Of a stretch of 64,000 bases of DNA, positions 7,808 to 52,462 are shown piece by piece; the first letter of the stretch is position 1; each line of letters begins with the position of its first letter. Under the pieces are notes generated by a model. It ran no database searches. It was not told the origin of the DNA and saw only the letters and a list, made by a program, of their open reading frames with translations. The translations under genes and the position numbers were made by a program. Source of the DNA: an uncultured Bacilli bacterium. GTDB taxonomy: Bacteria; Bacillota_I; Bacilli_A; RF39; UBA660. The stretch spans positions 5,395-69,394 of the forward strand of contig CAKOTU010000001.1 in assembly GCA_934120265.1 (NCBI GenBank), read 5' to 3'.

Positions 7808-8581
7808 ATGGAAAAAATAAAATTATTAATGATAGATGATAACGTGAACTTAGTTAAAATGGTTCAAGAATATTTTAGTACTAATGAAAATATTTCATTA
7901 GACATTACTGCTTATGATGGTGCAGAAGGAATAAAAATTATAGAAGAAAGACAAAACGATTATGACATAATATTACTTGATTTAATTATGCCTAAAAAAG
8001 ACGGATTATATGTTCTAGAAGAAATGCAAAAGAGGGGCATAAATAAAAAAGTTATAGTGGAAACTAGCTATAATGCTAGTGAAGTAATTAAAGAAGTCGC
8101 AGAGTTTGGAGTAAATTATTTTATTTTAAAACCATTTGAACTAGCTGATTTAGAAAAAAGAATATTAGATACTGTTAAAACAAAAACCAATACTAAAAAA
8201 GAAATAGATTTTTATAATAGTAATTTACAAGTATCAATAACAAAAATATTACACGAATTAGGAATTCCATCACATATCAAAGGATATCAATATATTCGTG
8301 AAGGTATAGGAATAATTTTTGATCATCCAGAAACGATTGGTGGAATAACAAAGGAATTGTATCCAGAACTAGCCACAAAATTTGATACAACAGTTTCACG
8401 TGTAGAAAGAGCAATAAGACACGCAATTGAAGTTAGCTGGAATCGTGGTAGTTGGGATTTGATGGAAGAGATATTTGGTCATAGCGTTGATATAGATAAA
8501 GCTAAACCAACTAATTCTGAATTTATTGTAACAATTGCTGATAAATTAAGATTAGATTATTATAAAGTTGGTAGTGTTTAG
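7808..8581 (+). CDS. spo0A: sporulation master response regulator Spo0A
   Basis: Receiver domain (DDN...LLDLIMP) plus the diagnostic Spo0A C-terminal DNA-binding region IPSHIKGYQYIREGI...SRVERAIRHAIEVSWNRGS. Confidence 0.95.
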   Translation: MEKIKLLMIDDNVNLVKMVQEYFSTNENISLDITAYDGAEGIKIIEERQNDYDIILLDLIMPKKDGLYVLEEMQKRGINKKVIVETSYNASEVIKEVAEFGVNYFILKPFELADLEKRILDTVKTKTNTKKEIDFYNSNLQVSITKILHELGIPSHIKGYQYIREGIGIIFDHPETIGGITKELYPELATKFDTTVSRVERAIRHAIEVSWNRGSWDLMEEIFGHSVDIDKAKPTNSEFIVTIADKLRLDYYKVGSV

Positions 8582-11170: not shown

Positions 11171-12151
11171 ATGAAATGGAAAATAGGTAATATTGAAATT
11201 AAAAATCAAGTTGTGTTAGCACCTATGGCGGGCATATGTAACAGTGCTTATCGTAGAATTATTAAAGAGATGGGTTGTGGTCTTATTGAGGCTGAAATGG
11301 TTAGTGATAAAGCCATAAGTTTTGGTAATGAGAAAACAATTGAAATGCTTTACATGACTGATTTTGAAAGACCTATTTCTCAGCAAATATTTGGTAGTGA
11401 TAAAGAATCGTTTATTACGTCTGCTAAGTATATATATGAACACATGAAACCAGATATTATAGATATAAATATGGGATGCCCAGTACCTAAGGTTGCTGTT
11501 CGTGCTCAAGCAGGAAGTGCTCTTTTAAAAAATCCAGATAAAGTATATGAAATAGTAAAAGCAGTAGTGGATGCTGTTCCTGTTCCAGTTACTGTAAAAA
11601 TAAGAAGTGGTTGGGATGAAAAAAGTATTAATGCTGTTGAAATAGCGCAAATTATTGAGCGTGCTGGTGCGAGTGCAATTACTGTTCATCCAAGGACTAG
11701 AAGTCAAGGTTATACTGGTAAAGCTAATTGGAATATAATAAAAGAAGTAAAAGAAAATGTATCGATTCCAGTAATCGGTAATGGTGACATAACTAGTTGT
11801 TATGATGCAAAAAGAATGCTTGATGAAACAGGTTGTGATGCTGTTATGATAGGAAGAGGAGTACTAGGTAATCCGTGGTTAATAAAAGAAACGGTTGAAT
11901 ACTTAGAAAATGGTAAGGAACCTAGTAGTGTTTCTTTAGAAGATAAAATAGATATGATAAAAAAACACGTAAATTATCTTTTAGAAATCAAACCTGAAAA
12001 AGTAGCGCTTCTAGAAATGCGTAGTCATGCTGCGTGGTATTTTAAGGGAGTAGAAAATGCCAGTAAGATACGAAGTGAATTAAGTAAAATAAAAACAAAG
12101 GAAGAATTATTTAATATTTTAGATAATTTTAAGGGAGGCAAATATGAATAA
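11171..12151 (+). CDS. dusB: tRNA-dihydrouridine synthase
   Basis: LAPMAGI, DINMGCP, VTVKIR and TVHPRTR motifs. I prefer the ATG at 11171, with RBS AGGTGA 6 nt upstream, to the GTG at 11162. Confidence 0.9.
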   Translation: MKWKIGNIEIKNQVVLAPMAGICNSAYRRIIKEMGCGLIEAEMVSDKAISFGNEKTIEMLYMTDFERPISQQIFGSDKESFITSAKYIYEHMKPDIIDINMGCPVPKVAVRAQAGSALLKNPDKVYEIVKAVVDAVPVPVTVKIRSGWDEKSINAVEIAQIIERAGASAITVHPRTRSQGYTGKANWNIIKEVKENVSIPVIGNGDITSCYDAKRMLDETGCDAVMIGRGVLGNPWLIKETVEYLENGKEPSSVSLEDKIDMIKKHVNYLLEIKPEKVALLEMRSHAAWYFKGVENASKIRSELSKIKTKEELFNILDNFKGGKYE

Positions 12152-23458: not shown

Positions 23459-23514
23459 AACAAACTTTTCTTTTATTTTGCTTAAAAATATTATATAATG
23501 GGTGTGGTGATAAA

Positions 23515-24822
23515 ATGTTTGAAAGTTTAGGAGAAAGATTACAAAATGCTATCGATAAAATAAAAGGTTATGGAAAAATAACAGAAGATAACATAAGTGA
23601 TGTAGTAAGAGAAATAAGATTAGCTTTACTTGAAGCTGATGTTAACTATAAAGTAGTAAAAGAATTTGTTAATAATGTAAAAGAAAAAGCTTTAGGAGAA
23701 GAAGTTGCTAAGAGCTTAAAACCTGGGGAAGTGTTTGTTAAGATTCTAAAAGATGAACTTGTTGAACTACTTGGGGGAGAAAAAGCTGACTTAAATTTAA
23801 ATGGTAATCCAGCAACTTTAATGCTTGTTGGTCTTCAAGGTACCGGTAAAACAACAATGATAGGTAAACTTGGATTAATGCTTAGAAAGAAGTATCACAA
23901 GAAACCTCTTTTGGTTGCCTGTGATGTTTATAGACCTGCTGCTATTGATCAATTAAAAACAATTGGTAAAGAATTAAATATCGAAGTATACAATGAAGGA
24001 AAAGGTAATCCAGTAGAGATTTCTAAGAATGCTATTAATTATGCTAAAGAAAATAAATTTGATTATGTTTTAATAGATACTGCAGGACGTTTACACATTG
24101 ATACTGAACTTATGGATGAATTAAAAAGTATTAATGAAAATATTCATCCCGATGAAATACTATTAGTAGTTGATAGTATGACAGGTCAAGATGCTATAAA
24201 TGTTATTGAAGGGTTTAATGAGGCTCTTCCTTTAACTGGTGCCATCTTAACAAAATTAGATGGTGATACTAGAGGTGGTGCGGCTCTTTCTATCCGTCAT
24301 TTAACTAATGTTCCAATTAAATTTGTTGGTGTAAGTGAAAAGATGGATGGAATAGAAGAATTTTATCCAGAAAGAATGGCAACCCGTATTTTAGGTATGG
24401 GAGATATTATGACAATGTTAGAAAAGGCTGAGTCAGTAATAGATGAAGAAGAAGCTTTAAAAACGGCTAAGAAAATGCAGAAAGGTAATTTTGATTTAGA
24501 AGATTTCTTAAGTCAATTAAAACAAATAAAGAAACTAGGACCTTTAGAAAATCTACTTAAAATGATTCCTGGAGCAAAAAAAATGGGATTAAATCAAGTA
24601 CATATTGATCCTAAAGATATGGCTCATGTAGAAGCAATTATTCTTTCCATGACACCTTATGAAAGAAGACATCCAGAAGTACTTAAAGCAAGTCGTAAGG
24701 TTAGAATTGCTAAAGGTAGTGGAAGAACTGTAGAAGAAGTAAATAGACTTCTAAAACAATTTGAGCAAATGAAAGATATGATGAAAAAATTTCAAAATGG
24801 TAGTTTAAAAATGCCATTTTAA
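23515..24822 (+). CDS. ffh: signal recognition particle protein
   Basis: GLQGTGKTT, DTAGRLH, TKLDGD and a Met-rich C-terminal M domain. Confidence 0.95.
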   Translation: MFESLGERLQNAIDKIKGYGKITEDNISDVVREIRLALLEADVNYKVVKEFVNNVKEKALGEEVAKSLKPGEVFVKILKDELVELLGGEKADLNLNGNPATLMLVGLQGTGKTTMIGKLGLMLRKKYHKKPLLVACDVYRPAAIDQLKTIGKELNIEVYNEGKGNPVEISKNAINYAKENKFDYVLIDTAGRLHIDTELMDELKSINENIHPDEILLVVDSMTGQDAINVIEGFNEALPLTGAILTKLDGDTRGGAALSIRHLTNVPIKFVGVSEKMDGIEEFYPERMATRILGMGDIMTMLEKAESVIDEEEALKTAKKMQKGNFDLEDFLSQLKQIKKLGPLENLLKMIPGAKKMGLNQVHIDPKDMAHVEAIILSMTPYERRHPEVLKASRKVRIAKGSGRTVEEVNRLLKQFEQMKDMMKKFQNGSLKMPF

Positions 24823-24859
24823 AAGGAAAGTTTAACTTTCTTTTTTAGTAGGTGATAAA

Positions 24860-25210
24860 ATGAGTAATGATATATTTGATAGATTAGCTAAATCAAAATT
24901 TAGATCTAGTTTTCATTTGAAAGAAAAGGATATTTTATATATAAAAGAAAAAGGACTAGATAAAATAGAAAGTCATGCTTATGATTTTGTCAATAAAAGA
25001 TTAAAAGATGTGTCTAACTTAGTAGATGGAAAACAAACACCAATGAGAGGACACCCAGTCTTTTTAGCTCAACACGCAACAGCTACATGTTGTAGAGGAT
25101 GCTTAGAGAAGTGGCACAAAATAGATAAGAATAAAATACTAACTGATAAAGAAGTAGATTATGTGGTTAATATAATTATGACATGGATTAAAAAGAATTA
25201 TAGAGTTTAA
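24860..25210 (+). CDS. DUF4186 domain protein
   Basis: GHPVFLAQHATATCCRGCLEKWH is the conserved core of DUF4186. Confidence 0.7.
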   Translation: MSNDIFDRLAKSKFRSSFHLKEKDILYIKEKGLDKIESHAYDFVNKRLKDVSNLVDGKQTPMRGHPVFLAQHATATCCRGCLEKWHKIDKNKILTDKEVDYVVNIIMTWIKKNYRV

Positions 25211-25274
25211 AGGCAAATAACATATTCATAAATAGACTTACCTCATATGATAAACTAGGTAAGGGGGATTTTAA

Positions 25275-25466
25275 ATGTTATTTAATAGAAACTGTGGCTG
25301 CAATCGTCAAATAGGTAATGCTTTTGGATTTGGTGGTGGATGTTGTAATCAACCAATGATGGAACAACCAGTTATAGAACCAACTATTAATAAATGTATT
25401 GAAAAAGAGTTCTATCATGAAGTACCACATGTTTGTTTGAAAAGTGATGACATATGGAACATATAG
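25275..25466 (+). CDS. CotD-family spore coat protein, 5' segment of a split gene
   Basis: Host-derived codons run to 25430; the last 12 codons including the stop are read-through into the insertion. RBS GGGGGA lies upstream. The sequence MLFNRNCGCN...CCNQP...EPTINKCIEKEFYHEVPH stops matching the family at His52 and is completed in frame by 31221..31376. Confidence 0.75.
   Translation: MLFNRNCGCNRQIGNAFGFGGGCCNQPMMEQPVIEPTINKCIEKEFYHEVPHVCLKSDDIWNI
25426..25451. repeat. attL: CACAT core (25426-25430) plus element-side arm
   Basis: CACAT is repeated at 31216-31220. The arm GTTTGTTTGAAAAGTGATGAC (25431-25451) is an inverted copy (15/21 matches) of 31196-31216. Confidence 0.65.
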
Positions 25467-25718
25467 TAATAAATAAAGGGACAAATCAAGATTTAATCTA
25501 ACTGAAGACATGAATAATATAGGTGATAGAGTTATTGATTAACCAATGAATGTTAAGAGATAATAATTTTGGTAAAAACAAATTCATTAGAAAATTAGAA
25601 ACAAAAATTAATGATACTTTTAACTAGATTATATGTATAACAAATTAAGCAATATAATAAAGAAATAAGTAAATATCATTTATTTTTATATGGTATAATA
25701 TTTTAAAGGAGGTTTGCT

Positions 25719-27476
25719 ATGAAATCAGAACAAATTTGTGATATTTTTGAACAACTTGATAATAATAATACTTATAAAAAAATATTTATAAATGGTGCTT
25801 GGGGTATAGGAAAAAGTTTTTATACAAATGAATATAAAAAAAATCATAATGACAATATTGTTTATGTTAGCCTTTTTGGGAAAAATTCATTTGAATCTAT
25901 AGTTAATTCTCTTTCAAAAGAATTTATGAAACAACTAAAGGGATTTAAAGGTATAAAAAGGAAAGTAATGAAATCCGTAGAAAAAATTCAAGGGTCATTT
26001 TCTTATAAAGGGATTAGTATAAATTCTCCAACTATAAATAATAAAAGCTTATTAGAAGAATATTCAGAATTACTAAAAAAGAAAGACCTTATTATAATAA
26101 TGGATGATTTAGAAAGAAAAAGTGTAAATATTCCTATAGAAGATATTATGGGATTAATTGAAGAATTTTCTCTGATTGAAAAAGTTAAAATTGTTATTAT
26201 TGGTGATGAAACTAATATTAATGAGAATGAAAAAGAAAAATGGAATAAATTTAAAGAAAAAATTGTCGAAAAAGAATACAAAATTGATACTTTTTCAGAA
26301 GAAGCAATAGAATCCATTGTTATTAAAAAGTTAAATATCTATATAAGTGAAGATAATTTAAAAAATTATATTTCAGATTTTTTAAGTAAGCACAGGGTTA
26401 AAAATTTAAGAACAATTAATAAGGGGATAAATCTGTTTGATGAAATAGTTAATAACTATCTTGAACAAAAATATGATGAAAGTGTTAATTTAATAATTTT
26501 AAAAAATTGTATGTCTGTTTCAGTAGAATATACTGAACAATTATATAAACCAGATGAAAATGACAAAGATTCAAATGATACATTTAAATTAATTTCATAT
26601 AGTACTAATTTGGAAATGCCATCTAGAATTATGTTCAATTATTTCAATTTAGATTTTGCAAATACGAGAGAATCATCTATTCTTGAATATGTAATAAAAT
26701 TTTATAATACTGAAATAAGTGATGAAGTTATAGAAAAATTTAATAATGTGTTAAAAAATTATGTTAGTGCAAAAAAAGATAAGAGTATATTCTATCTATC
26801 GGAAAAAGATATTATTAATAAATTAGAAAAAATATATACAAGTATTGAAAGTGAAAAATATAAAATAAAAACATTGGAAGAATTTATAGATGATATATAT
26901 ACAGTGCTTAATTATAATAAAAGATTTTCCTTGAAATATAATTTTGATTTGATTTCTACTCATGTTAATAATATTTTATTTACTCAGTATTATAATATTT
27001 CAAAAGATGAGTATAATAATAAAATTGATGAATTTAATTTAGTAAAATATAAATCATCTGAATTAGATGAAATTGTGAGAGTATATAATGATAGAGTATC
27101 AAAAAAATACACAATTGATAAGATAGACTACATAATCGAAAAATATAAAAACAATGATTTAAATACTAATTATTTAATATATTTAAGAGATAAATTTATA
27201 CAATATGATTCTAAATATTCACAGGAATATTTTGTTGAATCTTGTAGAAAAAATAATTTTTTATTACCAAATTTAGAGAGCGAAATTCAAGAAAGTGATT
27301 GGTTATGGACACATATGATTTGGACATTGTTTTATAAATATTTAGAACCGAATTATCAAAAAGAATTAAATGATTATGTGGAAAAAATTAAATCAAAGAA
27401 TAAACTAATTAAGTATAGAATTGATGCTTTACAAGAAAATAAACCACTAATAAAAAAAGAGATGAGTAATCGTTAA
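25719..27476 (+). CDS. KAP-family P-loop NTPase
   Basis: Walker A INGAWGIGKSF and the KAP-type Walker B LIIIMDDLERKS, followed by a long alpha-helical C-terminal region. RBS GGAGG lies upstream. Confidence 0.8.
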   Translation: MKSEQICDIFEQLDNNNTYKKIFINGAWGIGKSFYTNEYKKNHNDNIVYVSLFGKNSFESIVNSLSKEFMKQLKGFKGIKRKVMKSVEKIQGSFSYKGISINSPTINNKSLLEEYSELLKKKDLIIIMDDLERKSVNIPIEDIMGLIEEFSLIEKVKIVIIGDETNINENEKEKWNKFKEKIVEKEYKIDTFSEEAIESIVIKKLNIYISEDNLKNYISDFLSKHRVKNLRTINKGINLFDEIVNNYLEQKYDESVNLIILKNCMSVSVEYTEQLYKPDENDKDSNDTFKLISYSTNLEMPSRIMFNYFNLDFANTRESSILEYVIKFYNTEISDEVIEKFNNVLKNYVSAKKDKSIFYLSEKDIINKLEKIYTSIESEKYKIKTLEEFIDDIYTVLNYNKRFSLKYNFDLISTHVNNILFTQYYNISKDEYNNKIDEFNLVKYKSSELDEIVRVYNDRVSKKYTIDKIDYIIEKYKNNDLNTNYLIYLRDKFIQYDSKYSQEYFVESCRKNNFLLPNLESEIQESDWLWTHMIWTLFYKYLEPNYQKELNDYVEKIKSKNKLIKYRIDALQENKPLIKKEMSNR

Positions 27477-27747
27477 AAACTTACTTATCTTTTTTTCTTA
27501 TAATCGAGAAACGTCTCTAAACAAAAATAACATATATAAAAGAATTTGTTCTGTTTTGAAGTATTTTTAATGTATTTAAATATATCAATTTTCTTAATTA
27601 TTATTTGTAAATTAAAAAAAATAAAAAAGTTTAATAATATGCATATGTGAGTTGTTTTAGTAATAAATTAATGTGTAATTTTTGAATTAAAACTTTATTC
27701 TTAATTAAAGCTATAAATATGATATAATAATAATAGGAGTTGATAGT

Positions 27748-29076
27748 ATGGGATTAAGATATAGGAAAAGTATTAATTTAGGCTGTGGATTTAGAATTAA
27801 TTTAAGTAAATCAGGTGTTGGATACAGTTGGGGCTTTCCTGGTTATAGAATGACAAAAAAAGCAAATGGTGGAATTAGAACAACATATTCATTGCCTGGA
27901 ATGGGAATTTCTTATGTTGAAGAAAATAAAGGGAGAAGTTATAATTCGTCTCCTAATTTGTTAACTGGCGAAACAATTAATTATGAAAATACAAATATTA
28001 TTAATTTAGGCAAAGACGATTTGATCCTAAAAAATATAAGAAAGTTAAGAGAAATAAATTTAATGTCAAATATTTGTATTATTTCATTTATTCTTTTTCC
28101 AATATTTCCACCAATGCTATTATTTTTAATTATAGGTATAATCTTAAAATTATTGTTGGCGACAAAATGGAAAATAGATTTAATTTATGAGTTTGATGAC
28201 CATAGCTTAAAAAAATATGAATGCTTAAAAAATGTTATGTCAACACTATCAACTAGTAAAAAAATATGGCAGGTTAAAACTTCGACAAAAGTATATAATA
28301 CAAAATATAATGCTGGAGCTGGTAACAATATTACTAGATATAATATTTCCCTAGATAAAAAATTACCATTTTATATTAAGCATAATGTAGATATATATTC
28401 TTTAAAATTAAAAGGAGAAAAAATGATTTTTACCCCAGATAGAGTTTTGTATTTAAAGGGGCTAACTGGAGTATATGGTAGAAATTTTAGGGATATGTTT
28501 ATTGACGTTTGTGATACTCGGTTTGTAGAAAGTGATGCTGTACCAAAAGATGCAGAGATAATTGATTATACCTGGCAATATGTAAATAGAAGTGGTGGCC
28601 CAGATAAAAGATTCAATAATAATAAGCGCCTGCCAATATGTAAGTATGGTCAAGTGATCTTTAAAACAGATGATGGAATTAATATACGTATTGAATATTC
28701 AAACGCAGGGCTTAAATCAATAATTAAAAATTCATTTATTGAATTTGCTAAATATCATAATGAAGAAATTGATAATGAACAAAAAAATAATTTGAAATCA
28801 GATTATGAAGATAGTAAAATTCAGGGTTCGGATAGTAGTAATCTAGAAAGTATAGATGATAATAGTGTTGAAAGTGAACCCTTATACAAGGAAGTTGTAG
28901 AATTTGTTATATCAAATGGAAAAGTAAGTGCTTCTCTTTTACAGAGAAAATTTAAGTTTGGTTATAATAGAGCTGTTCGTTGTGTTAAATTGCTAGAACA
29001 AAATGGTATTATTGGACCAAATAATGGAACAAAAACTAGAATGGTAATTATTAAAAATAGGAGTGATGAAGAGTAA
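27748..29076 (+). CDS. membrane protein with N-terminal DUF4236, a central TM segment and a C-terminal FtsK-gamma winged-helix DNA-binding domain
   Basis: MGLRYRKSINLGCGFRINLSKSGVGYSWGFPGYRMT...PGMGISY matches DUF4236. The hydrophobic stretch is ICIISFILFPIFPPMLLFLIIGIILKLLL. EPLYKEVVEFVISNGKVSASLLQRKFKFGYNRAVRCVKLLEQNGIIGP matches the FtsK/SpoIIIE gamma domain. Confidence 0.75.
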   Translation: MGLRYRKSINLGCGFRINLSKSGVGYSWGFPGYRMTKKANGGIRTTYSLPGMGISYVEENKGRSYNSSPNLLTGETINYENTNIINLGKDDLILKNIRKLREINLMSNICIISFILFPIFPPMLLFLIIGIILKLLLATKWKIDLIYEFDDHSLKKYECLKNVMSTLSTSKKIWQVKTSTKVYNTKYNAGAGNNITRYNISLDKKLPFYIKHNVDIYSLKLKGEKMIFTPDRVLYLKGLTGVYGRNFRDMFIDVCDTRFVESDAVPKDAEIIDYTWQYVNRSGGPDKRFNNNKRLPICKYGQVIFKTDDGINIRIEYSNAGLKSIIKNSFIEFAKYHNEEIDNEQKNNLKSDYEDSKIQGSDSSNLESIDDNSVESEPLYKEVVEFVISNGKVSASLLQRKFKFGYNRAVRCVKLLEQNGIIGPNNGTKTRMVIIKNRSDEE

Positions 29077-29414
29077 AATTTTTATTACTCTTTTAATTTA
29101 TATAAATAACTAAATTTTTAATATTTTTAGGTGTATATTAGTAAAAAAATATTTGTATACTAAATATTTTTTTGACATTCTAACAAACATTTTAAGTTTT
29201 ATTATTTAATCATACTATTTTTTCAGACTTCATCGTATTTGCTTTTGTTTGATACTATAGTGTTTTTTGGTATTTTATTTTCAATAGATCTATTTTTTTA
29301 AATAGTCTTTTTTTGTATTAAATATTTATTGTTGTTATTTGAATGATGCTTAAGTAGAAAACGAAAGAATTTAATAAAAATCTTATATTGGCATAAGTTT
29401 AATTAGGTGAACCT

Positions 29415-29501
29415 ATGAAAATAAAAAATCATTTTGATGAAAATGGTAAAAAATTAGAAGATATATTAGAACAATTTTTACTTAAAATTTGTTTGGACTA
29501 A
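29415..29501 (+). CDS. possible 28-aa small ORF upstream of the recombinase (MKIKNHFDENGKKLEDILEQFLLKICLD)
   Basis: AGGTGA RBS 5 nt upstream of the ATG. No recognisable family, so it may not be expressed. Confidence 0.25.
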   Translation: MKIKNHFDENGKKLEDILEQFLLKICLD

Positions 29502-29572
29502 ATCGTTATAGGCCTTTAAAAACAAAGAAAAAATGATATATATCAATATGTGTTCAACCAAAAGGAGAAATT

Positions 29573-31156
29573 ATGAATTTAAAGAACACATGGAAAGCTG
29601 GTATTTATATAAGACTTTCCAAAGCTGATGAAAAAGAAGAAAACGATGAAAGTGAAAGTATAACTAATCAAAGAAATTTTATAATTTCATTTTTACAAGA
29701 AAACAATTATGAATTATATGATGAGTATATTGACGATGGACTTACTGGAACAAGTTTTGATAGACCTGCTTTTAATAGAATGATTGATGATATTGAAAAT
29801 AAAAGAATAAATATGGTTATTACAAAGGATGCTTCAAGGTTAGGAAGAAATAATGAAGATTTTATCGGTTATACTGAAAGGTATTTTCCTGAACATAATA
29901 TAAGATATATTTCTATACTTGATGGAATTGATACTTATTTAGATAATATTGGCAATGATATGATACAAATAAAAGGTATGATGAATGAATGGTATAGTAA
30001 AGATATCTCTAAAAAGATTAAAGCAAGTATAGAAACTAAAAAGAAACAGGGGTTGTTTCTTGGTGGTTATACCCCTTATGGTTATAAACATGATCTAAGG
30101 AATAAATATAAACTTATTATAGATAAAAATGTAGATGATAATGTTAAACTTATTTATGATATGTTTATTAAAGGTAATAGTTTAGGAAAAATAGCAAAAT
30201 ATCTTACTGAAAATAAAATACCAACACCAAGTGTTTATAAAAGTATGAATTTTAATAAAGATAGAAAGACAAGAAATATTTGGGATCCAAAAACTATTGA
30301 TAATATATTAAAAAATCCCACATATATTGGTAATTTAGTACAAAATAGAAGAAAAAAAATAAACTATAAATCAAAAAAGGTAGTTACTAATCCAAAGGAA
30401 AAATGGATTATAGTTGAAAATACACATGAAGCAATAATTGATTTAGAAACTTTTGAAATTGTACAAAATATTTATTCGAAAAATAAAAATAGGAATGAAA
30501 AATCCCACGATTATTTATTAAGAGGTTTTTTATTTTGCAAAGAATGTGGTCATACTTTAGGAATTCAACAAAGTAGCGATAAAAAAAGAAACTATATGAT
30601 ATGTAATCATTATAGAAAGTATGGAAAAAATAGTTTTTGTTCTCCACATAGTAATAGATATGAAGATGTTGAAGAATTGGTATTGAAAGAAATAAGAAAA
30701 ATGTGTAAGAAATGCGTTAATAAGAAAAAATTTGAAAGTATCTTAAAAAATAATACTAAAAAAAGCAAGATGTTAGAAGAGATAAATAATAAAATTGAAA
30801 AAGCAACTAATTTATTACTAAACAATAAAGAATCTATTAAAACAATATACAAGGACAGAGCAAAAGGACTTGTAGATTTAGAAACATATACAGAAGTTTA
30901 TAATGATTTAATAAACGAAACTAATGAAATTAAAATTTTAATTGATGAATTAGAAAAAAGTAAAAAAAATTTATTAAATAATAAATTATATGATAATTAT
31001 AATTATGAAGAAATTGTTGAAGAGTATTTATCAATGAAAAAGCCTAACAAATTACTTTTATCTAGTATTATTGATAGAATAATCATTGATGAAAATAAAA
31101 ATGTTGATATTTACTATAAAATCAAACCTATTTCTGATTATAAAATAGGAAAATAA
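29573..31156 (+). CDS. large serine recombinase (resolvase/invertase catalytic domain, recombinase domain, zinc ribbon and coiled-coil)
   Basis: AGIYIRLS catalytic-Ser N-terminus, DDGLTGTSFDRPAF, VITKDASRLGRN, the PYGY recombinase domain, the Cys cluster CKECGH...CNHY...C and a long Lys/Glu-rich coiled-coil. The architecture is SpoIVCA/SprA/TnpX-like. Confidence 0.9.
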   Translation: MNLKNTWKAGIYIRLSKADEKEENDESESITNQRNFIISFLQENNYELYDEYIDDGLTGTSFDRPAFNRMIDDIENKRINMVITKDASRLGRNNEDFIGYTERYFPEHNIRYISILDGIDTYLDNIGNDMIQIKGMMNEWYSKDISKKIKASIETKKKQGLFLGGYTPYGYKHDLRNKYKLIIDKNVDDNVKLIYDMFIKGNSLGKIAKYLTENKIPTPSVYKSMNFNKDRKTRNIWDPKTIDNILKNPTYIGNLVQNRRKKINYKSKKVVTNPKEKWIIVENTHEAIIDLETFEIVQNIYSKNKNRNEKSHDYLLRGFLFCKECGHTLGIQQSSDKKRNYMICNHYRKYGKNSFCSPHSNRYEDVEELVLKEIRKMCKKCVNKKKFESILKNNTKKSKMLEEINNKIEKATNLLLNNKESIKTIYKDRAKGLVDLETYTEVYNDLINETNEIKILIDELEKSKKNLLNNKLYDNYNYEEIVEEYLSMKKPNKLLLSSIIDRIIIDENKNVDIYYKIKPISDYKIGK

Positions 31157-31193
31157 AAAACTTAATTGGAAAATTAAGTAAAATTTATACATT

Positions 31194-31376
31194 GTGTTAT
31201 CACTTTGGAAGCAGGCACATTGCTGTCCAATTCATACACACACTATAAATAAACATATCTATACACATACATATACTCCACAATATTCTTGTTCTGAAGA
31301 AAATGTTGTTGTAAATAATGACTGTGGAAGTTGTAGTGGTCTTGCTAATCAAGGATTTAACAACACAAATATGTAA
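31194..31376 (+). CDS. CotD-family spore coat protein, 3' segment of the split gene (host-derived from 31221)
   Basis: ...H CCPIHTHTINKHIYTHTYTPQYSCSEENVVVNNDCGSCSG... continues the His/Thr/Pro-rich CotD-like core. The first 8 codons from the GTG at 31194 are element DNA, so this is not a genuine start. Confidence 0.75.
   Translation: MLSLWKQAHCCPIHTHTINKHIYTHTYTPQYSCSEENVVVNNDCGSCSGLANQGFNNTNM
31196..31220. repeat. attR: element-side arm plus CACAT core (31216-31220)
   Basis: GTTATCACTTTGGAAGCAGGC (31196-31216) is an inverted partner of 25431-25451. It contains the perfect 8-mer ATCACTTT, matched by AAAGTGAT at 25441-25448. Each 8-mer lies 10 nt from the shared ACAT. Confidence 0.65.
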
Positions 31377-31385
31377 TGTGAAAAA

Positions 31386-31411
31386 ACCAACGAAAAAATC
31401 GCTGGTTTTTT
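31386..31411 (+). terminator. rho-independent terminator after the coat gene 3' segment
   Basis: ACCAACG / CGCTGGT stem (one mismatch) followed by T6. Confidence 0.7.
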
Positions 31412-31480
31412 ATTATAGAAAAAATTATTGACATAATATACAAATTTATATATATTGTAGTTGAATAGAGATGATAATAT

Positions 31481-31873: not shown

Positions 31874-31949
31874 TTTAATTATACAAAAAAAGCACTATTT
31901 AGTGTTTTTATTTTTATATTAGAAAAGTTATAAAAAATGTAAAAAGTTA

Positions 31950-31979
31950 TTGACAAACATTTGTTTGCTTTGATACAAT
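31950..31979 (+). promoter_or_regulatory. sigma-A-type promoter with an AAAC-N4-GTTT palindrome in the spacer, upstream of the DinD-like gene
   Basis: TTGACA at 31950-55, an 18-nt spacer and TGATACAAT (extended -10) at 31971-79. AAACATTTGTTT occupies 31955-66. Confidence 0.5.
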
Positions 31980-32105
31980 TTAATTGCTTGAAAGATAATG
32001 TATATGGATAAAACTTATTGATAATAATTATTCTTTGAAAATTTTTTAGTATAAATTGAAGAAATATAATAAAAAACAGTCGATATAAGAACGAGGAGGT
32101 TACGA

Positions 32106-32957
32106 ATGAATCAGGATAAAATGCATTTAATTAATAAAATTATTAATAATGAAACAATAAGAACGGTGTGGGATAAAGAAGATGAAAAATATTATATTAG
32201 TGTTGTTGATATAGTGGGAGTAATATCAGAAAGCAAAGATAAACAGTCTTACTGGAGAAAACTAAAGCAGAGGTTAAAGGAAGAAGGAAATGAAACCGTG
32301 ACAAATTGTCACGCTTTGAAATTAAAAGCTCAGGATGGTAAATATAGGTTAACAGATGTTGTCGATATTGAAGGAATATTTAGAATAATTGAATCTATTC
32401 CTAGTAAAAATGCAGAACCAATAAAGATATGGTTAGCTAAATTAGGAAGTGAAAGAATTGATGAAGTATTTGATCCATCACTTGCAGCACAAAGAGCTAT
32501 AGATATATATCGTGCTAAAGGTTATGATGAAAAATGGATTGCAAAAAGAATTAAAGGTATTCAAGATAGAAAACAACTTACTGATGTATGGAAAGATGGT
32601 GGAATAACTGAATCAAAAGAATATGCAATCCTTACAAATGAAATTTATAAAGAATGGTCTGGCATGACTGCAAAAGAGTATAAATCATTTAAAGGACTTA
32701 GGAAAGAATCATTAAGAGACAATATGTCTGATATAGAAGTGGCACTTGCAGATTTAGGGGAAATAGCAACTAGAGAGATTGCTAAAAAGAAAAATCCAAA
32801 AGGTTTGAATGAAAATATTGAGGTGGCAAGGCGAGGTGGTAAAATTGCTGGTAATACAAGAAAAGATTTGGAAAACGAACTTGGTGAGAGTGTAGTTACT
32901 AGCGATAATATATTAAGCTATGAATATATCGACGAAAAAGAAATTGAAATGAAATAG
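32106..32957 (+). CDS. Bro-N domain protein, DinD (DNA-damage-inducible protein D)-like
   Basis: The N-terminal IRTVWDKEDEKYYISVVDIVGVIS...YWRKLKQRL resembles Bro-N/DinD family proteins. RBS GAGGAGG lies upstream. Confidence 0.7.
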   Translation: MNQDKMHLINKIINNETIRTVWDKEDEKYYISVVDIVGVISESKDKQSYWRKLKQRLKEEGNETVTNCHALKLKAQDGKYRLTDVVDIEGIFRIIESIPSKNAEPIKIWLAKLGSERIDEVFDPSLAAQRAIDIYRAKGYDEKWIAKRIKGIQDRKQLTDVWKDGGITESKEYAILTNEIYKEWSGMTAKEYKSFKGLRKESLRDNMSDIEVALADLGEIATREIAKKKNPKGLNENIEVARRGGKIAGNTRKDLENELGESVVTSDNILSYEYIDEKEIEMK

Positions 32958-33036
32958 ATGAGTATGCATCATTATAATAAGAATTTTAGGCACTAAAAAT
33001 TAATTATAAATAACAAAAAACACCGTTTAGGTGCTT

Positions 33037-50558: not shown

Positions 50559-50599
50559 GTGTATCAAATTATGATAAAATATAACAAGTGGTGATAAGT

Positions 50600-52462
50600 A
50601 TGTATTATAAAATAAGCAATGGTAGTGTAACACTTTCTGGTAATACTATTTTAGAAGATATTAATTTTAAAGTTAGTGATAATGAAAAAATAGGTATAGT
50701 TGGTCGTAATGGTAGTGGTAAGACAACATTACTTAAAGCTATAGTAGGTGAAATAGATTTAGAGAATGGTTATGATGATTTAAAGGTAGAAAGTGTTGGA
50801 GATTATAAAGTTGGATATGTTAAACAAAATATTGACAATAATTTGAATATTAAAATGATTGATTATATAGTTGATGCTTATTCTAATCTTATTGATATAG
50901 AAAAAAATATGAAGAAATTAGAAAATAAAATGATATCTGGATATGATGAAAATATTGTTAATAAATATAATGATTTGATATCAAAATATGAATATCTAGG
51001 TGGTTATACTTATAAAAAAGAATACGAGGTAGCACTAAAAAAATTTGGTTTTAGTGAAAGTGATAAAGATAAGTTACTAAGTGAATTTTCTGGAGGACAA
51101 TTAACTAAGTTATCACTAGTAAAATTATTACTTAGTAAACCTGATTTACTTATACTTGATGAACCAACAAATCACTTGGATATAAGCACTATCGAATGGT
51201 TAGAAGATTATTTAAAAAATTATAATAAAAGTATTATTATAGTTAGCCATGATCGTATGTTTTTGGATAACGTTTGTAACGTTATATATGATATAGAATA
51301 TGGTACTTTAAAAAGATATAATGGTAATTATACTTATTTTGTAAATAAGAAACACGAAGATTATTTAAAACAAGAACGTGATTACGAAACTCAACAAAAA
51401 GAAATAAAGAGGTTGCAAGCTATTGCAGATAGGTTTAGATATAAACCATCTAAAGCATCAATGGCAATGTCTAAACTAAAACAAATAGAAAGAATGGTTA
51501 AAATAGATAAACCACAAAAAGAAAACAGCAGGACTTTCAAAACTAATTTTAGCCCTAATCAAGAAAGTTATCGTGATGTTTTAAAAGTTAAAAATTTATC
51601 TATAGGTTATGATAAAGAATTAAGTAAATTAACTTTTAATGTAGAACGTAAAGATAAATTAGGTATTATAGGTGAAAATGGAATTGGTAAGAGTACATTA
51701 CTTAAAACAATTATGGGATTTATTAGTCCTTTAGGTGGTAAATATACATTTGGTGATAAAGTTAATATTGGGTATTTTTCTCAACAACTTGATAATATAG
51801 ATTCTAACAAAACAATTTATGAAGAAATAGATAACGCGTTTCCTAGTATGTCACCAACAGAAATAAGAAGTTTGTTAGGTGCTTTTGATTTTCACGGCGA
51901 TGAAGTATTTAAAAAGATTTCTAGTTTATCTGGGGGAGAAAAAGTAAGAGTTAGTTTATGTAAGATATTAAATAGCAGACCAAATGTTCTTATTTTAGAT
52001 GAACCAACAAATCACTTGGATATTATCAATAAAAATACGATAGAAAAGATGTTAAAAGAATATAATGGTACAATTATTATGGTAAGCCACGATAGATATT
52101 TGATAAAAAATGTATGTACGAAATTATTAGTATTTAATAAAGATGAAGTTATTTTATATAGTTATGGATATGATGAATATTTAGAAAAAAGAAAAGTAAT
52201 TAAAGAATCTGAAATAATAAAGAAAGAAAATAAAGTATCAAAAAAAGAAGTTAATATTAATTTAACAAAAGAAATAAATAAAATTGAAAAAGTGATAGAT
52301 AATAAAGAAAAGGAATTAGCTAAATTAAATAAAGAACTTTTAAAAGAAGAAGTATATATGGATATTAGTAAAGCTAAATCTATACAAGAAAAAATAGAAA
52401 AAATTACAAAAGAAATAGAAATTAAAACTAAGGAATGGGAAGATTTAGCAAATAAGCTGTAA
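50600..52462 (+). CDS. ABC-F family ATPase (two ABC domains with linker, no TM; translation-factor type)
   Basis: Two Walker A motifs (GRNGSGKTT, GENGIGKST), two signatures (FSGGQLTK, LSGGEKVR) and a Lys/Glu-rich C-terminal coiled-coil. I prefer the ATG at 50600. Confidence 0.9.
   Translation: MYYKISNGSVTLSGNTILEDINFKVSDNEKIGIVGRNGSGKTTLLKAIVGEIDLENGYDDLKVESVGDYKVGYVKQNIDNNLNIKMIDYIVDAYSNLIDIEKNMKKLENKMISGYDENIVNKYNDLISKYEYLGGYTYKKEYEVALKKFGFSESDKDKLLSEFSGGQLTKLSLVKLLLSKPDLLILDEPTNHLDISTIEWLEDYLKNYNKSIIIVSHDRMFLDNVCNVIYDIEYGTLKRYNGNYTYFVNKKHEDYLKQERDYETQQKEIKRLQAIADRFRYKPSKASMAMSKLKQIERMVKIDKPQKENSRTFKTNFSPNQESYRDVLKVKNLSIGYDKELSKLTFNVERKDKLGIIGENGIGKSTLLKTIMGFISPLGGKYTFGDKVNIGYFSQQLDNIDSNKTIYEEIDNAFPSMSPTEIRSLLGAFDFHGDEVFKKISSLSGGEKVRVSLCKILNSRPNVLILDEPTNHLDIINKNTIEKMLKEYNGTIIMVSHDRYLIKNVCTKLLVFNKDEVILYSYGYDEYLEKRKVIKESEIIKKENKVSKKEVNINLTKEINKIEKVIDNKEKELAKLNKELLKEEVYMDISKAKSIQEKIEKITKEIEIKTKEWEDLANKL

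Follow-up and report, generated by a model that had tools for sequence, protein, structure and literature searches.

The DNA analysed here is a stretch of 64,000 nucleotides (the window) from contig CAKOTU010000001.1 of an uncultured Bacilli bacterium (GTDB lineage UBA660; assembly GCA_934120265.1), in which a gene of the CotD spore coat family, cotD, lies in two pieces on either side of an element carrying a large serine recombinase (LSR) gene. A first-pass annotation of the window, made from the letters alone, had described two partial open reading frames (ORFs) at 25275..25466 and 31194..31376, and both are present as placed, encoding 63 and 60 amino acids respectively. The left ORF reads past the junction to a stop codon at 25466, so the part of it that belongs to cotD, the 5′ segment, is 25275..25429, comprising codons 1–51 plus the CA of His52 and colinear with an uninterrupted allele (L001, described below) and 24 homologues. 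The 3′ segment (31220..31376) runs from the last base of His52 to the stop codon. These features, like the parts of the element and the promoter boxes described below, lie on the plus strand. The sequence CACAT is found at 25426–25430 and again at 31216–31220, and deletion of 5,790 bp in silico yields a 312-nt ORF of 103 codons (…FYHEVPH|CCPIHTHTINKH…), the translation of which reproduces the product that had been claimed. The break points in cotD are 25429/25430 and 31219/31220, and alignment of homologues places the junction between P51 and H52, within YHEVPH[VC]CPIHTH, the best-conserved block of the family. A shared 5-mer is trivially expected by chance and is by itself no proof of insertion; it is the empty site that is decisive.

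Uninterrupted alleles, which the annotation had proposed looking for, do exist. A search with the joined protein returned a full-length protein of 103 amino acids (P0001), 99% identical to the rebuilt ORF, together with 286 further full-length relatives. P0001 is encoded by a metagenome contig (L001; ENA ERZ27279218) with the same gene order as the window, namely ffh, DUF4186, cotD. This contig aligns with window positions 23466–25430 at 97.2% and with 31216–31467 at 96.8% identity, and the two alignments overlap by exactly 5 bp, CACAT, which confirms the insertion to the base. All the relatives were colinear with the joined ORF, and none with the 63- and 60-amino-acid ORFs as separate genes.

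The assignment of the rebuilt protein to the CotD family, also made in the annotation, is well supported by its homologues, with its own score falling slightly short. Against PF11122 (CotD) the rebuilt ORF scores 19.5 bits, just under the cutoff of 22 (E 1.4e-3), over residues 32–89 and thus across the junction. All 25 aligned homologues (64–84% identity) match PF11122 and no other family, with a best E value of 1.9e-6, and one of them carries the NCBI name ‘CotD family spore coat protein’. A CATAnnnTA box (CATATGATA, 25244..25252), of the −10 type used by mother-cell sigma factors, lies 22 nt upstream of the cotD start; the box is found at the equivalent position upstream of cotD in five of six orthologous loci and with one mismatch in the sixth, a correspondence at the level of the motif only. 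In B. subtilis, cotD belongs to the sigma-K regulon and cotD mutants have only mild phenotypes. The annotation had noted both spo0A and gpr in the window. Spo0A, the master regulator of sporulation, is encoded at 7808..8581 (TIGR02875, 267.6 bits, cutoff 200) and is thus available to the host; a scan of 20 window proteins did not turn up gpr. No second, compensating copy of cotD was found within the 64-kb window.

The intervening element itself (25430..31219) is 5,790 bp long, with a G+C content of 22.3% compared with 26.7% for the window, and all its genes are on the same strand as cotD. Nearest the left end, at approximately 25490..25700, is the decayed remnant of an ORF of 74–84 amino acids (orf74/84), recognised by alignment with a related element (L002); the start codon and ribosome-binding site have been deleted and the reading frame is broken by frameshifts. 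Two cargo genes follow. The first (25719..27476) encodes a KAP-family P-loop NTPase of 585 amino acids (Pfam KAP_NTPase, E 2e-10; phrog_4740), which matches the PADLOC candidate defence system PDC-S49 with an E value of 6e-26, and the second (27748..29076) a protein of 442 amino acids with DUF4236 (E 1.6e-20) and an FtsK-gamma winged helix (FtsK_gamma, E 3.5e-22; phrog_17982). Next comes a gene for a peptide of 28 amino acids, orf28 (MKIKNHFDENGKKLEDILEQFLLKICLD, 29415..29501), with a strong ribosome-binding site and coupled to the recombinase gene. The LSR gene (29573..31156) is intact and encodes 527 amino acids, with matches to phrog_95 integrase (E 2e-112) and to the Pfam domains Resolvase, Recombinase and Zn_ribbon_recom at 88.7, 94.8 and 52.3 bits, all over their cutoffs; Tyr12, Arg14 and Ser16 of its YIRLS motif are invariant across seven relatives. 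Its best curated matches are CcrB and XisF, both far under the cutoffs. As had been reported, the LSR stop codon ends 60 nt short of the right CACAT. A perfect 8-bp hairpin, ACTTAATT-GGAA-AATTAAGT, read from the sequence just 3′ of this stop codon (31160..31179), is probably the LSR terminator, and an equivalent hairpin follows the LSR gene in two related elements (L002 and L015). Phage structural, lysis or replication genes were not found in the element, and its PHROG matches, integrase apart, fall in families without a known function. With no phage genes, this integrative element is of a non-phage kind and does not resemble skin in the strict sense.

Both ends of the element carry predicted recombinase-binding arms. 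The left arm (TGTTTGTTTGAAAAGTGATGACAT…, 25430..25459), which corresponds to the right half-site of attP, is kept in five related elements (L002, L015, L017, L018 and L019); the right arm (GTTATCACTTTGGAAGCAGGCA, 31188..31219) forms part of attR. Rebuilt from the two ends, attP reads …GTTATCACTTTGGAAGCAGGCA-CA-TGTTTGTTTGAAAAGTGATGAC…, so that closure of the circle would give the junction …TTATCACTTTGGAAGCAGGCACATGTTTGTTTGAAAAGTGATGAC…, and the attB junction of the rebuilt cotD is …CATGAAGTACCACATTGCTGTCCAATTCAT…. The attP arms form an imperfect inverted repeat about the central CA, with 20 of 30 positions matching; 62-mers drawn at random from the window gave 9.0 ± 2.5, and a value of 20 was not reached by any of 5,000. 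The symmetry of attB extends to only 10 of 30 positions, and a more symmetric attP than attB is the usual asymmetry for LSR sites. The cores shared by attL and attR are CACAT in the window, CACA in L002, CCACA in L015, CATGTTTGT in L018, CAT in L021 and ACA in the second recombinase clade (clade B, below). Since the only bases common to all the cores in these six lineages are CA, we take this to be the crossover dinucleotide, located at 25428..25429 in attL (inside the repeat at 25426–25430 and at the centre of attP symmetry) and at 31218–31219 in attR, the position of cleavage being deduced from this comparison of cores. These data show that the element was integrated site-specifically by an LSR at the CA of a His codon in the conserved EVPH(C/V)CPIHTH motif of cotD.

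Many other elements share this site with that of the window, and roughly 40 elements were found in all. An alignment of LSRs, used to scan metagenomes, gave 80 loci, and cotD fragments lay beside the LSR gene in 28 of them. In a neighbour-joining tree of the LSRs, calculated without bootstrap, the recombinases found in cotD form two clades, A and B, each coherent and separated from one another by clades with other targets. The clade A recombinases, which include that of the window, are 55–99% identical and lie inside cotD in L002, L015–L019 and L021. One from another species, on a contig of a metagenome-assembled genome (L002), is 93% identical to the window LSR and sits in a cotD whose product is 71% identical to that of the window; the element is 8.7 kb long and carries other cargo, including a DnaB-type helicase and HTH regulators. 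Three more hosts have LSRs 82, 82 and 75% identical in cotD (L015, L017 and L018, respectively), and the whole of the L018 element is only 3,180 bp, made up of a Wzy_C-like gene, orf28 and the LSR gene. In L019 and L021 the LSRs found in cotD are 58% and 55% identical; one of the two elements carries hybrid histidine kinases as cargo and the other an AbiEii toxin. Clade B recombinases, 39–44% identical to the LSR of the window, split cotD at the same CA, with attP arms (GTCTATCATAAAGGG…CA…TTTATGATAGAC) unrelated to those of clade A and cargo that includes NERD, Bro-N, GNAT, Fic and ASCH proteins. When cotD was rebuilt at the CA in four host lineages (the window species, L002, L015 and L018), all four gave intact CotD ORFs, of 89–115 amino acids. 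With sizes from 3.2 to 8.7 kb, diverse hosts and variable cargo, these loci show that small elements with cotD as their dedicated attachment site make up a broad family; the recombination module consists of the two att arms, the 28-amino-acid ORF and the LSR gene, and the rest is exchangeable cargo.

Comparison of the recombinases with a host protein suggests how the family has spread. Where the LSRs are 75–82% identical the host Ffh proteins are 73–76% identical, and these values point to transfer between distant hosts rather than co-descent. At a further locus (L069) a clade B LSR lies beside a cotD 3′ half, a C-terminal segment of 45 amino acids, that is 100% identical to that of L002, which holds a clade A element, so that both kinds of element use the same site in the same host. 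Here two unrelated elements compete for one attachment site in one host species.

Within the host species of the window the element is polymorphic. The truncated product of 63 amino acids is encoded on approximately 13 contigs and the main intact variant of 103 amino acids on 286, which places the element in about 4% of the contigs of the species. Carrier samples include those of sequencing runs ERR7745397, SRR29133691, ERR7738213 and ERR10754286 and of assemblies ERZ28614795, ERZ28614049 and ERZ27287243. The same element was found on at least ten further metagenome contigs, including strains with a different gene content in the flanks. Identity between the window and two of these (L005 or L009) is 99.6% in the element, 97.5–98.1% in the left flank and 93% in the right. 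Differences in the left flank start 39 bp from the junction; the first four, at 39, 60, 99 and 132 bp, are all silent and the 63-amino-acid products are identical. The element is far less diverged than its flanks and has therefore been recently mobile, and since the divergence steps at the junction, the pattern indicates independent site-specific insertions; co-transfer together with the flanks does not fit.

Apart from the LSR gene, orf28 is the only gene common to clade A. It lies directly upstream of the LSR gene in all clade A elements and in a sister clade, and by our own reading of the alignment its substitutions are mostly synonymous. The orf28-like peptides of the sister clade have the consensus MKIxNxFDENGKxLQxIxEQFLIxYCL. 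In L019 the peptide gene overlaps the LSR start, as does an ORF of 58–75 amino acids in clade B, in which a motif looks related by eye. Peptides of the orf28 type match no Pfam or PHROG family, the only hit being a weak one to DUF6870 (E 0.04), and no mention of DUF6870 was found in the full-text literature searched. The only candidate for an accessory or directionality factor is orf28.

We also considered orf74/84, which lies just inside attL in the orientation of cotD in L002, L015 and L017, is a pseudogene in the window and was not detected in L018, L019 or L021. It was rejected as a directionality factor both for the small size of its family, 17 clusters, and because it belongs to a cargo backbone, together with the DnaB helicase, that is also found with a tyrosine integrase at other sites. 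As a cargo-backbone gene, its decay is uninformative on the ability of the window element to excise. The backbone of the L002 cargo (orf92, a DnaB_C helicase and HTH genes) recurs in an element of about 8 kb (L105:440-17094; L103 and L104:10001-18050) in which the place of the LSR is taken by a tyrosine integrase, together with an HTH_17 protein; L105 has two copies in tandem, and in L103 the element adjoins a yabG-like gene (Peptidase_U57), veg and spoVG.

Directly upstream of the ribosome-binding site of orf28 is a sigma-E-like motif, TAATAAA-N13-CATAAGTT (29372..29399). The pattern, which was written after seeing the site, has two matches on the plus strand of the 64-kb window compared with 1.4 in shuffled sequences. 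Across nine clade A elements the CATA box upstream of the orf28–LSR pair is kept in all, and four of the nine also have the −35 match. We regard the motif as a lead, not a test. A scan for sigma-70 promoters gave 55 promoter-like sites where 64 were expected, and the accompanying scan for terminators found none; both are uninformative in DNA so rich in A and T. In L002, L015 and L017 the interval from orf28 to the LSR start contains a perfect extended −10 box, TGGTATAAT, which in the window (29500–29572) is reduced by an 8-bp deletion to TGATATATA; it may act as a separate promoter that serves only the LSR gene in vegetative cells.

What happens to the interrupted gene depends on when, if ever, the element leaves it. 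Judging from the sigma-K regulon of B. subtilis and the CATAnnnTA box, cotD would be expressed only late, in the terminally differentiated mother cell, and if so an element within it should cost vegetative cells nothing. In the scheme that we favour, the LSR would recombine attL with attR in the sporulating mother cell to give an intact cotD of 103 codons and a 5.79-kb circle, and the forespore chromosome would keep the element. Skin, SPbeta, vfbin, gin and yin follow this course. The timing device would most likely be a mother-cell promoter of the sigma-E type before the orf28–LSR pair. Read-through from the cotD promoter to the LSR gene was rejected as a source of expression, given the hairpins after the cargo genes and the fact that the cargo of L002 and L015 faces the other way. 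We put the chances of developmental excision in the mother cell, with retention in the forespore, at a little better than even. The grounds are precedent, the use of one site in a late coat gene by two clades and, more weakly, the CATA-type boxes and the presence of Spo0A in the window; they make such excision plausible rather than proven. A number of observations weigh against it. No recombination directionality factor was identified in the element, orf28 matching no known family, and the apparent co-transcription of orf28 with the LSR gene is awkward for a factor that sets direction. The promoter matches are short motifs in DNA of 73–78% A+T, with the sigma-E pattern defined post hoc, and the terminator-like hairpins that follow both cargo genes (identified by eye) argue against simple read-through from the cotD promoter. 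Neither an attP junction nor an excised junction or free circular form was recovered from the fetched contigs (approximately 100 loci) or from IMG/VR, a result that says nothing of when excision would take place. Among solved structures, the catalytic domain nearest to that of the window LSR is that of TnpX (75 bits), an enzyme that excises and integrates without a developmental cue. Carriage in only about 4% of the species contigs means that the element is not a fixed part of the sporulation programme. Finally, the sister LSR clade with orf28 splits a gene for an NMT1-like ABC substrate-binding protein, unrelated to sporulation, so that insertion into a coding sequence by this family of recombinases does not itself imply developmental rescue.

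Several of these points fit plain insertional inactivation, in which the cotD motif is used simply as conserved DNA in a gene dispensable for growth, the spores of carriers lack CotD and excision is rare and serves transfer only. We consider this a serious possibility, although less probable than developmental excision. It is favoured by the polymorphism and recent mobility of the element, by the location of the junction in the most conserved stretch of the protein, which makes a good universal attachment site, by the non-sporulation target of the sister clade, by the failure to find a directionality factor or an attP junction, by the TnpX-like catalytic domain and by the mild phenotypes of B. 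subtilis cotD mutants. However, inactivation does not readily explain why two LSR clades with about 40% identity and unrelated attP arms use the same dinucleotide of the same late sporulation gene. Neither cotD half has a disabling mutation in any of the rebuilt carrier lineages, although the insertions may be young, and all the comparable elements put to experiment are reported to excise during sporulation (PMC5595907, PMC10747680). If the LSR instead both integrated and excised without a directionality factor, in the manner of TnpX and CcrAB, cotD would act as a reversible on/off switch, with mixed populations at all stages and varied coats. The curated matches to CcrB and XisF, far below cutoffs as they are, together with the TnpX-like catalytic domain, would suit such a switch, as would the presence of different elements in the same host cotD allele in different samples (L069 and L002) and the detection of excised yin, an element of C. 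botulinum, at all time points (PMC10747680). We nevertheless think it improbable, as neither an attP junction nor a free circle was recovered from the fetched loci or IMG/VR, and a circle that does not replicate would be lost from dividing cells, the window cargo having no replication gene. A chimeric join of an unrelated element into cotD during assembly is refuted, for practical purposes entirely, by the same two junctions in at least ten independent assemblies from different samples and sources and by equivalent junctions in other species.

A stronger form of developmental excision can be envisaged, in which cotD is a dedicated ‘germline-only’ landing pad, used by at least two LSR lineages at the same CA, from which a peptide of about 28 amino acids and the LSR, under a sigma-E-type promoter, remove the elements in the mother cell. 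Taken as a whole we find this unlikely. Were it true, elements with defence or toxin genes would ride in vegetative and spore genomes at no cost, no recombination directionality factor smaller than the 28-amino-acid peptide would be known, and the peptide would define a family of small LSR-coupled proteins with a wide distribution.

Intervening elements in sigK, spsM, spoVFB, gerE and yabG have been reported to excise during sporulation (PMC5595907, PMC4191935, PMC10747680). The targets listed in recent papers are sigK, spsM, spoVFB, spoVR, gerE and yabG. The window element is best placed in this known class of intervening elements in sporulation genes, with a new target gene. Two members of the class, vfbin and vrin, are reportedly described in a paper by Abe and colleagues (Mol Microbiol, 2013). 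No report of an element in cotD was found in the full-text literature, a search that left most papers in subscription journals outside its scope. The novelty lies in the target, in the size of the family, in a crossover point common to two LSR clades and in a small ORF linked to the LSR gene. The annotation had likened the element to skin in sigK and SPbeta in spsM. The likeness holds for an LSR-bearing element with att sites of the LSR type, the deletion of which restores the gene; it fails in the lack of phage genes, in the carriage by only about 4% of contigs and in the recent mobility. As cargo DNA that has moved in the recent past, the element is more like gin or SPbeta in its behaviour than like a fixed part of development.

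Among known systems gin comes nearest; it lies in gerE of Bacillus cereus ATCC 10987 and has the recombinase GirC and the directionality factor GirX (PMC5595907). Gin and the window element are both non-phage elements that carry an LSR and interrupt a very short gene (225 bp for gerE, 312 bp for cotD) with late mother-cell expression, presumed in the case of cotD, both have a short core shared by attL and attR and an attP with inverted repeats, and both are found only in some strains and are near-identical between strains, which implies recent transfer. Gin, however, is 28.6 kb long with three recombinase genes and a proven GirX, and its sporulation-specific expression and excision have been demonstrated in vivo and in vitro, whereas the cotD elements, of 3.2–8.7 kb, have one LSR and no directionality factor that we could identify. 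The cotD elements also differ from gin in their target gene and in a much broader host range. Skin and SPbeta are prophages or prophage remnants of 14–134 kb. In both, the LSR (SpoIVCA in B. subtilis skin, CD1231 with CD1234 in C. difficile skin, SprA with SprB in SPbeta) recombines attL with attR and so reassembles a mother-cell gene from its two parts (PMC5025042, PMC4191935, PMC5499854). The element stays in the spore genome, and the recombinase gene adjoins one end, as it does in the cotD element; directionality factors and control by sigma-E or sigma-K are known for skin and SPbeta, unlike the cotD element. The targets differ as well, in that sigK is a regulator whose interruption gates development, whereas cotD is by family assignment a structural coat gene that should not. 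Yin, in yabG of Clostridium botulinum V73, is likewise found in a clostridial host, has a late, coat-related target in the sigma-K regulon, as cotD would be, and shares with the window element an attB that is conserved in strains without the element (PMC10747680). Yin is a prophage reported from a single strain, in contrast to the cotD elements, which are non-phage and form a large cross-genus family with two recombinase clades. TnpX of Tn4451, like the window LSR, serves a small cargo element without phage genes. Elements of the TnpX type choose their targets in a relaxed manner around a GA dinucleotide and need no directionality factor, whereas the cotD elements have one defined site and a CA crossover.

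The known intervening elements come mostly from cultured Bacillus and Clostridium, and the cotD family would extend the class to uncultured spore-formers of the gut. It would add a structural coat gene, rather than a regulator, to the targets and provide the smallest elements of the intervening kind so far, from 3.2 kb, and it links defence-gene cargo to insertion sites in sporulation genes. The compact LSR, with a defined attP and attB and an attB motif conserved in many Firmicutes, could serve as an integration tool, and orf28 is a testable candidate for a new type of LSR accessory factor. If excision proves not to be developmental, the finding would instead be of a natural polymorphism, common in gut bacteria, that knocks out a conserved coat gene.

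The sister clade mentioned above has as members L033, L036, L037, L039, L043, L055 and L082, with LSRs 42–49% identical and an orf28-like peptide preceding the LSR. From the LSR stop codon it is some 60–600 bp to the N-terminal half of a gene on the other strand, assigned by eye to the NMT1/SsuA-like ABC substrate-binding proteins. In different hosts this gene breaks off at the same point, apparently marking another dedicated insertion site. The LSR of L030, with 53% identity to that of the window, is followed (11560-11640) by an uninterrupted attP-like palindrome, AAAGTTTCACTT…GGCATG…GAAAAGTGAAAGA. By eye this contig has a higher G+C content and encodes an FtsK/TraG-like ATPase and a replication-relaxation-like protein; it may hold a related element in its free or conjugative state. 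In L002, some 2 kb downstream of the interrupted cotD, an ORF of 76 amino acids (L002:11697-11927) has a near-copy of the CotD C-terminus (SQYSCSEECQTVNLDCGKCSGFVGQ) joined to an unrelated N-terminus, and could be the scar of an earlier rearrangement at the locus.

Two further regions of the window deserve mention. Judged by gene content, L007 shares with the window a stretch of 1.13 kb about 0.5 kb downstream of cotD (31875–33002), which L005 and L009 lack. No att arms were found near this stretch, which carries a gene for a Bro-N-domain protein of 283 amino acids (32106..32957), 71% identical to a clade B cargo gene (L058:4421-5305). Further away, at 50588–52462, is a gene for an ABC-F protein of 624 amino acids that scores 473.5 bits against the NCBIfam model for ribosomal-protection-like ABC-F proteins (cutoff 380); its best match is OptrA, at 617 bits and well below the cutoff of 1450, and it may be of the antibiotic-resistance type.

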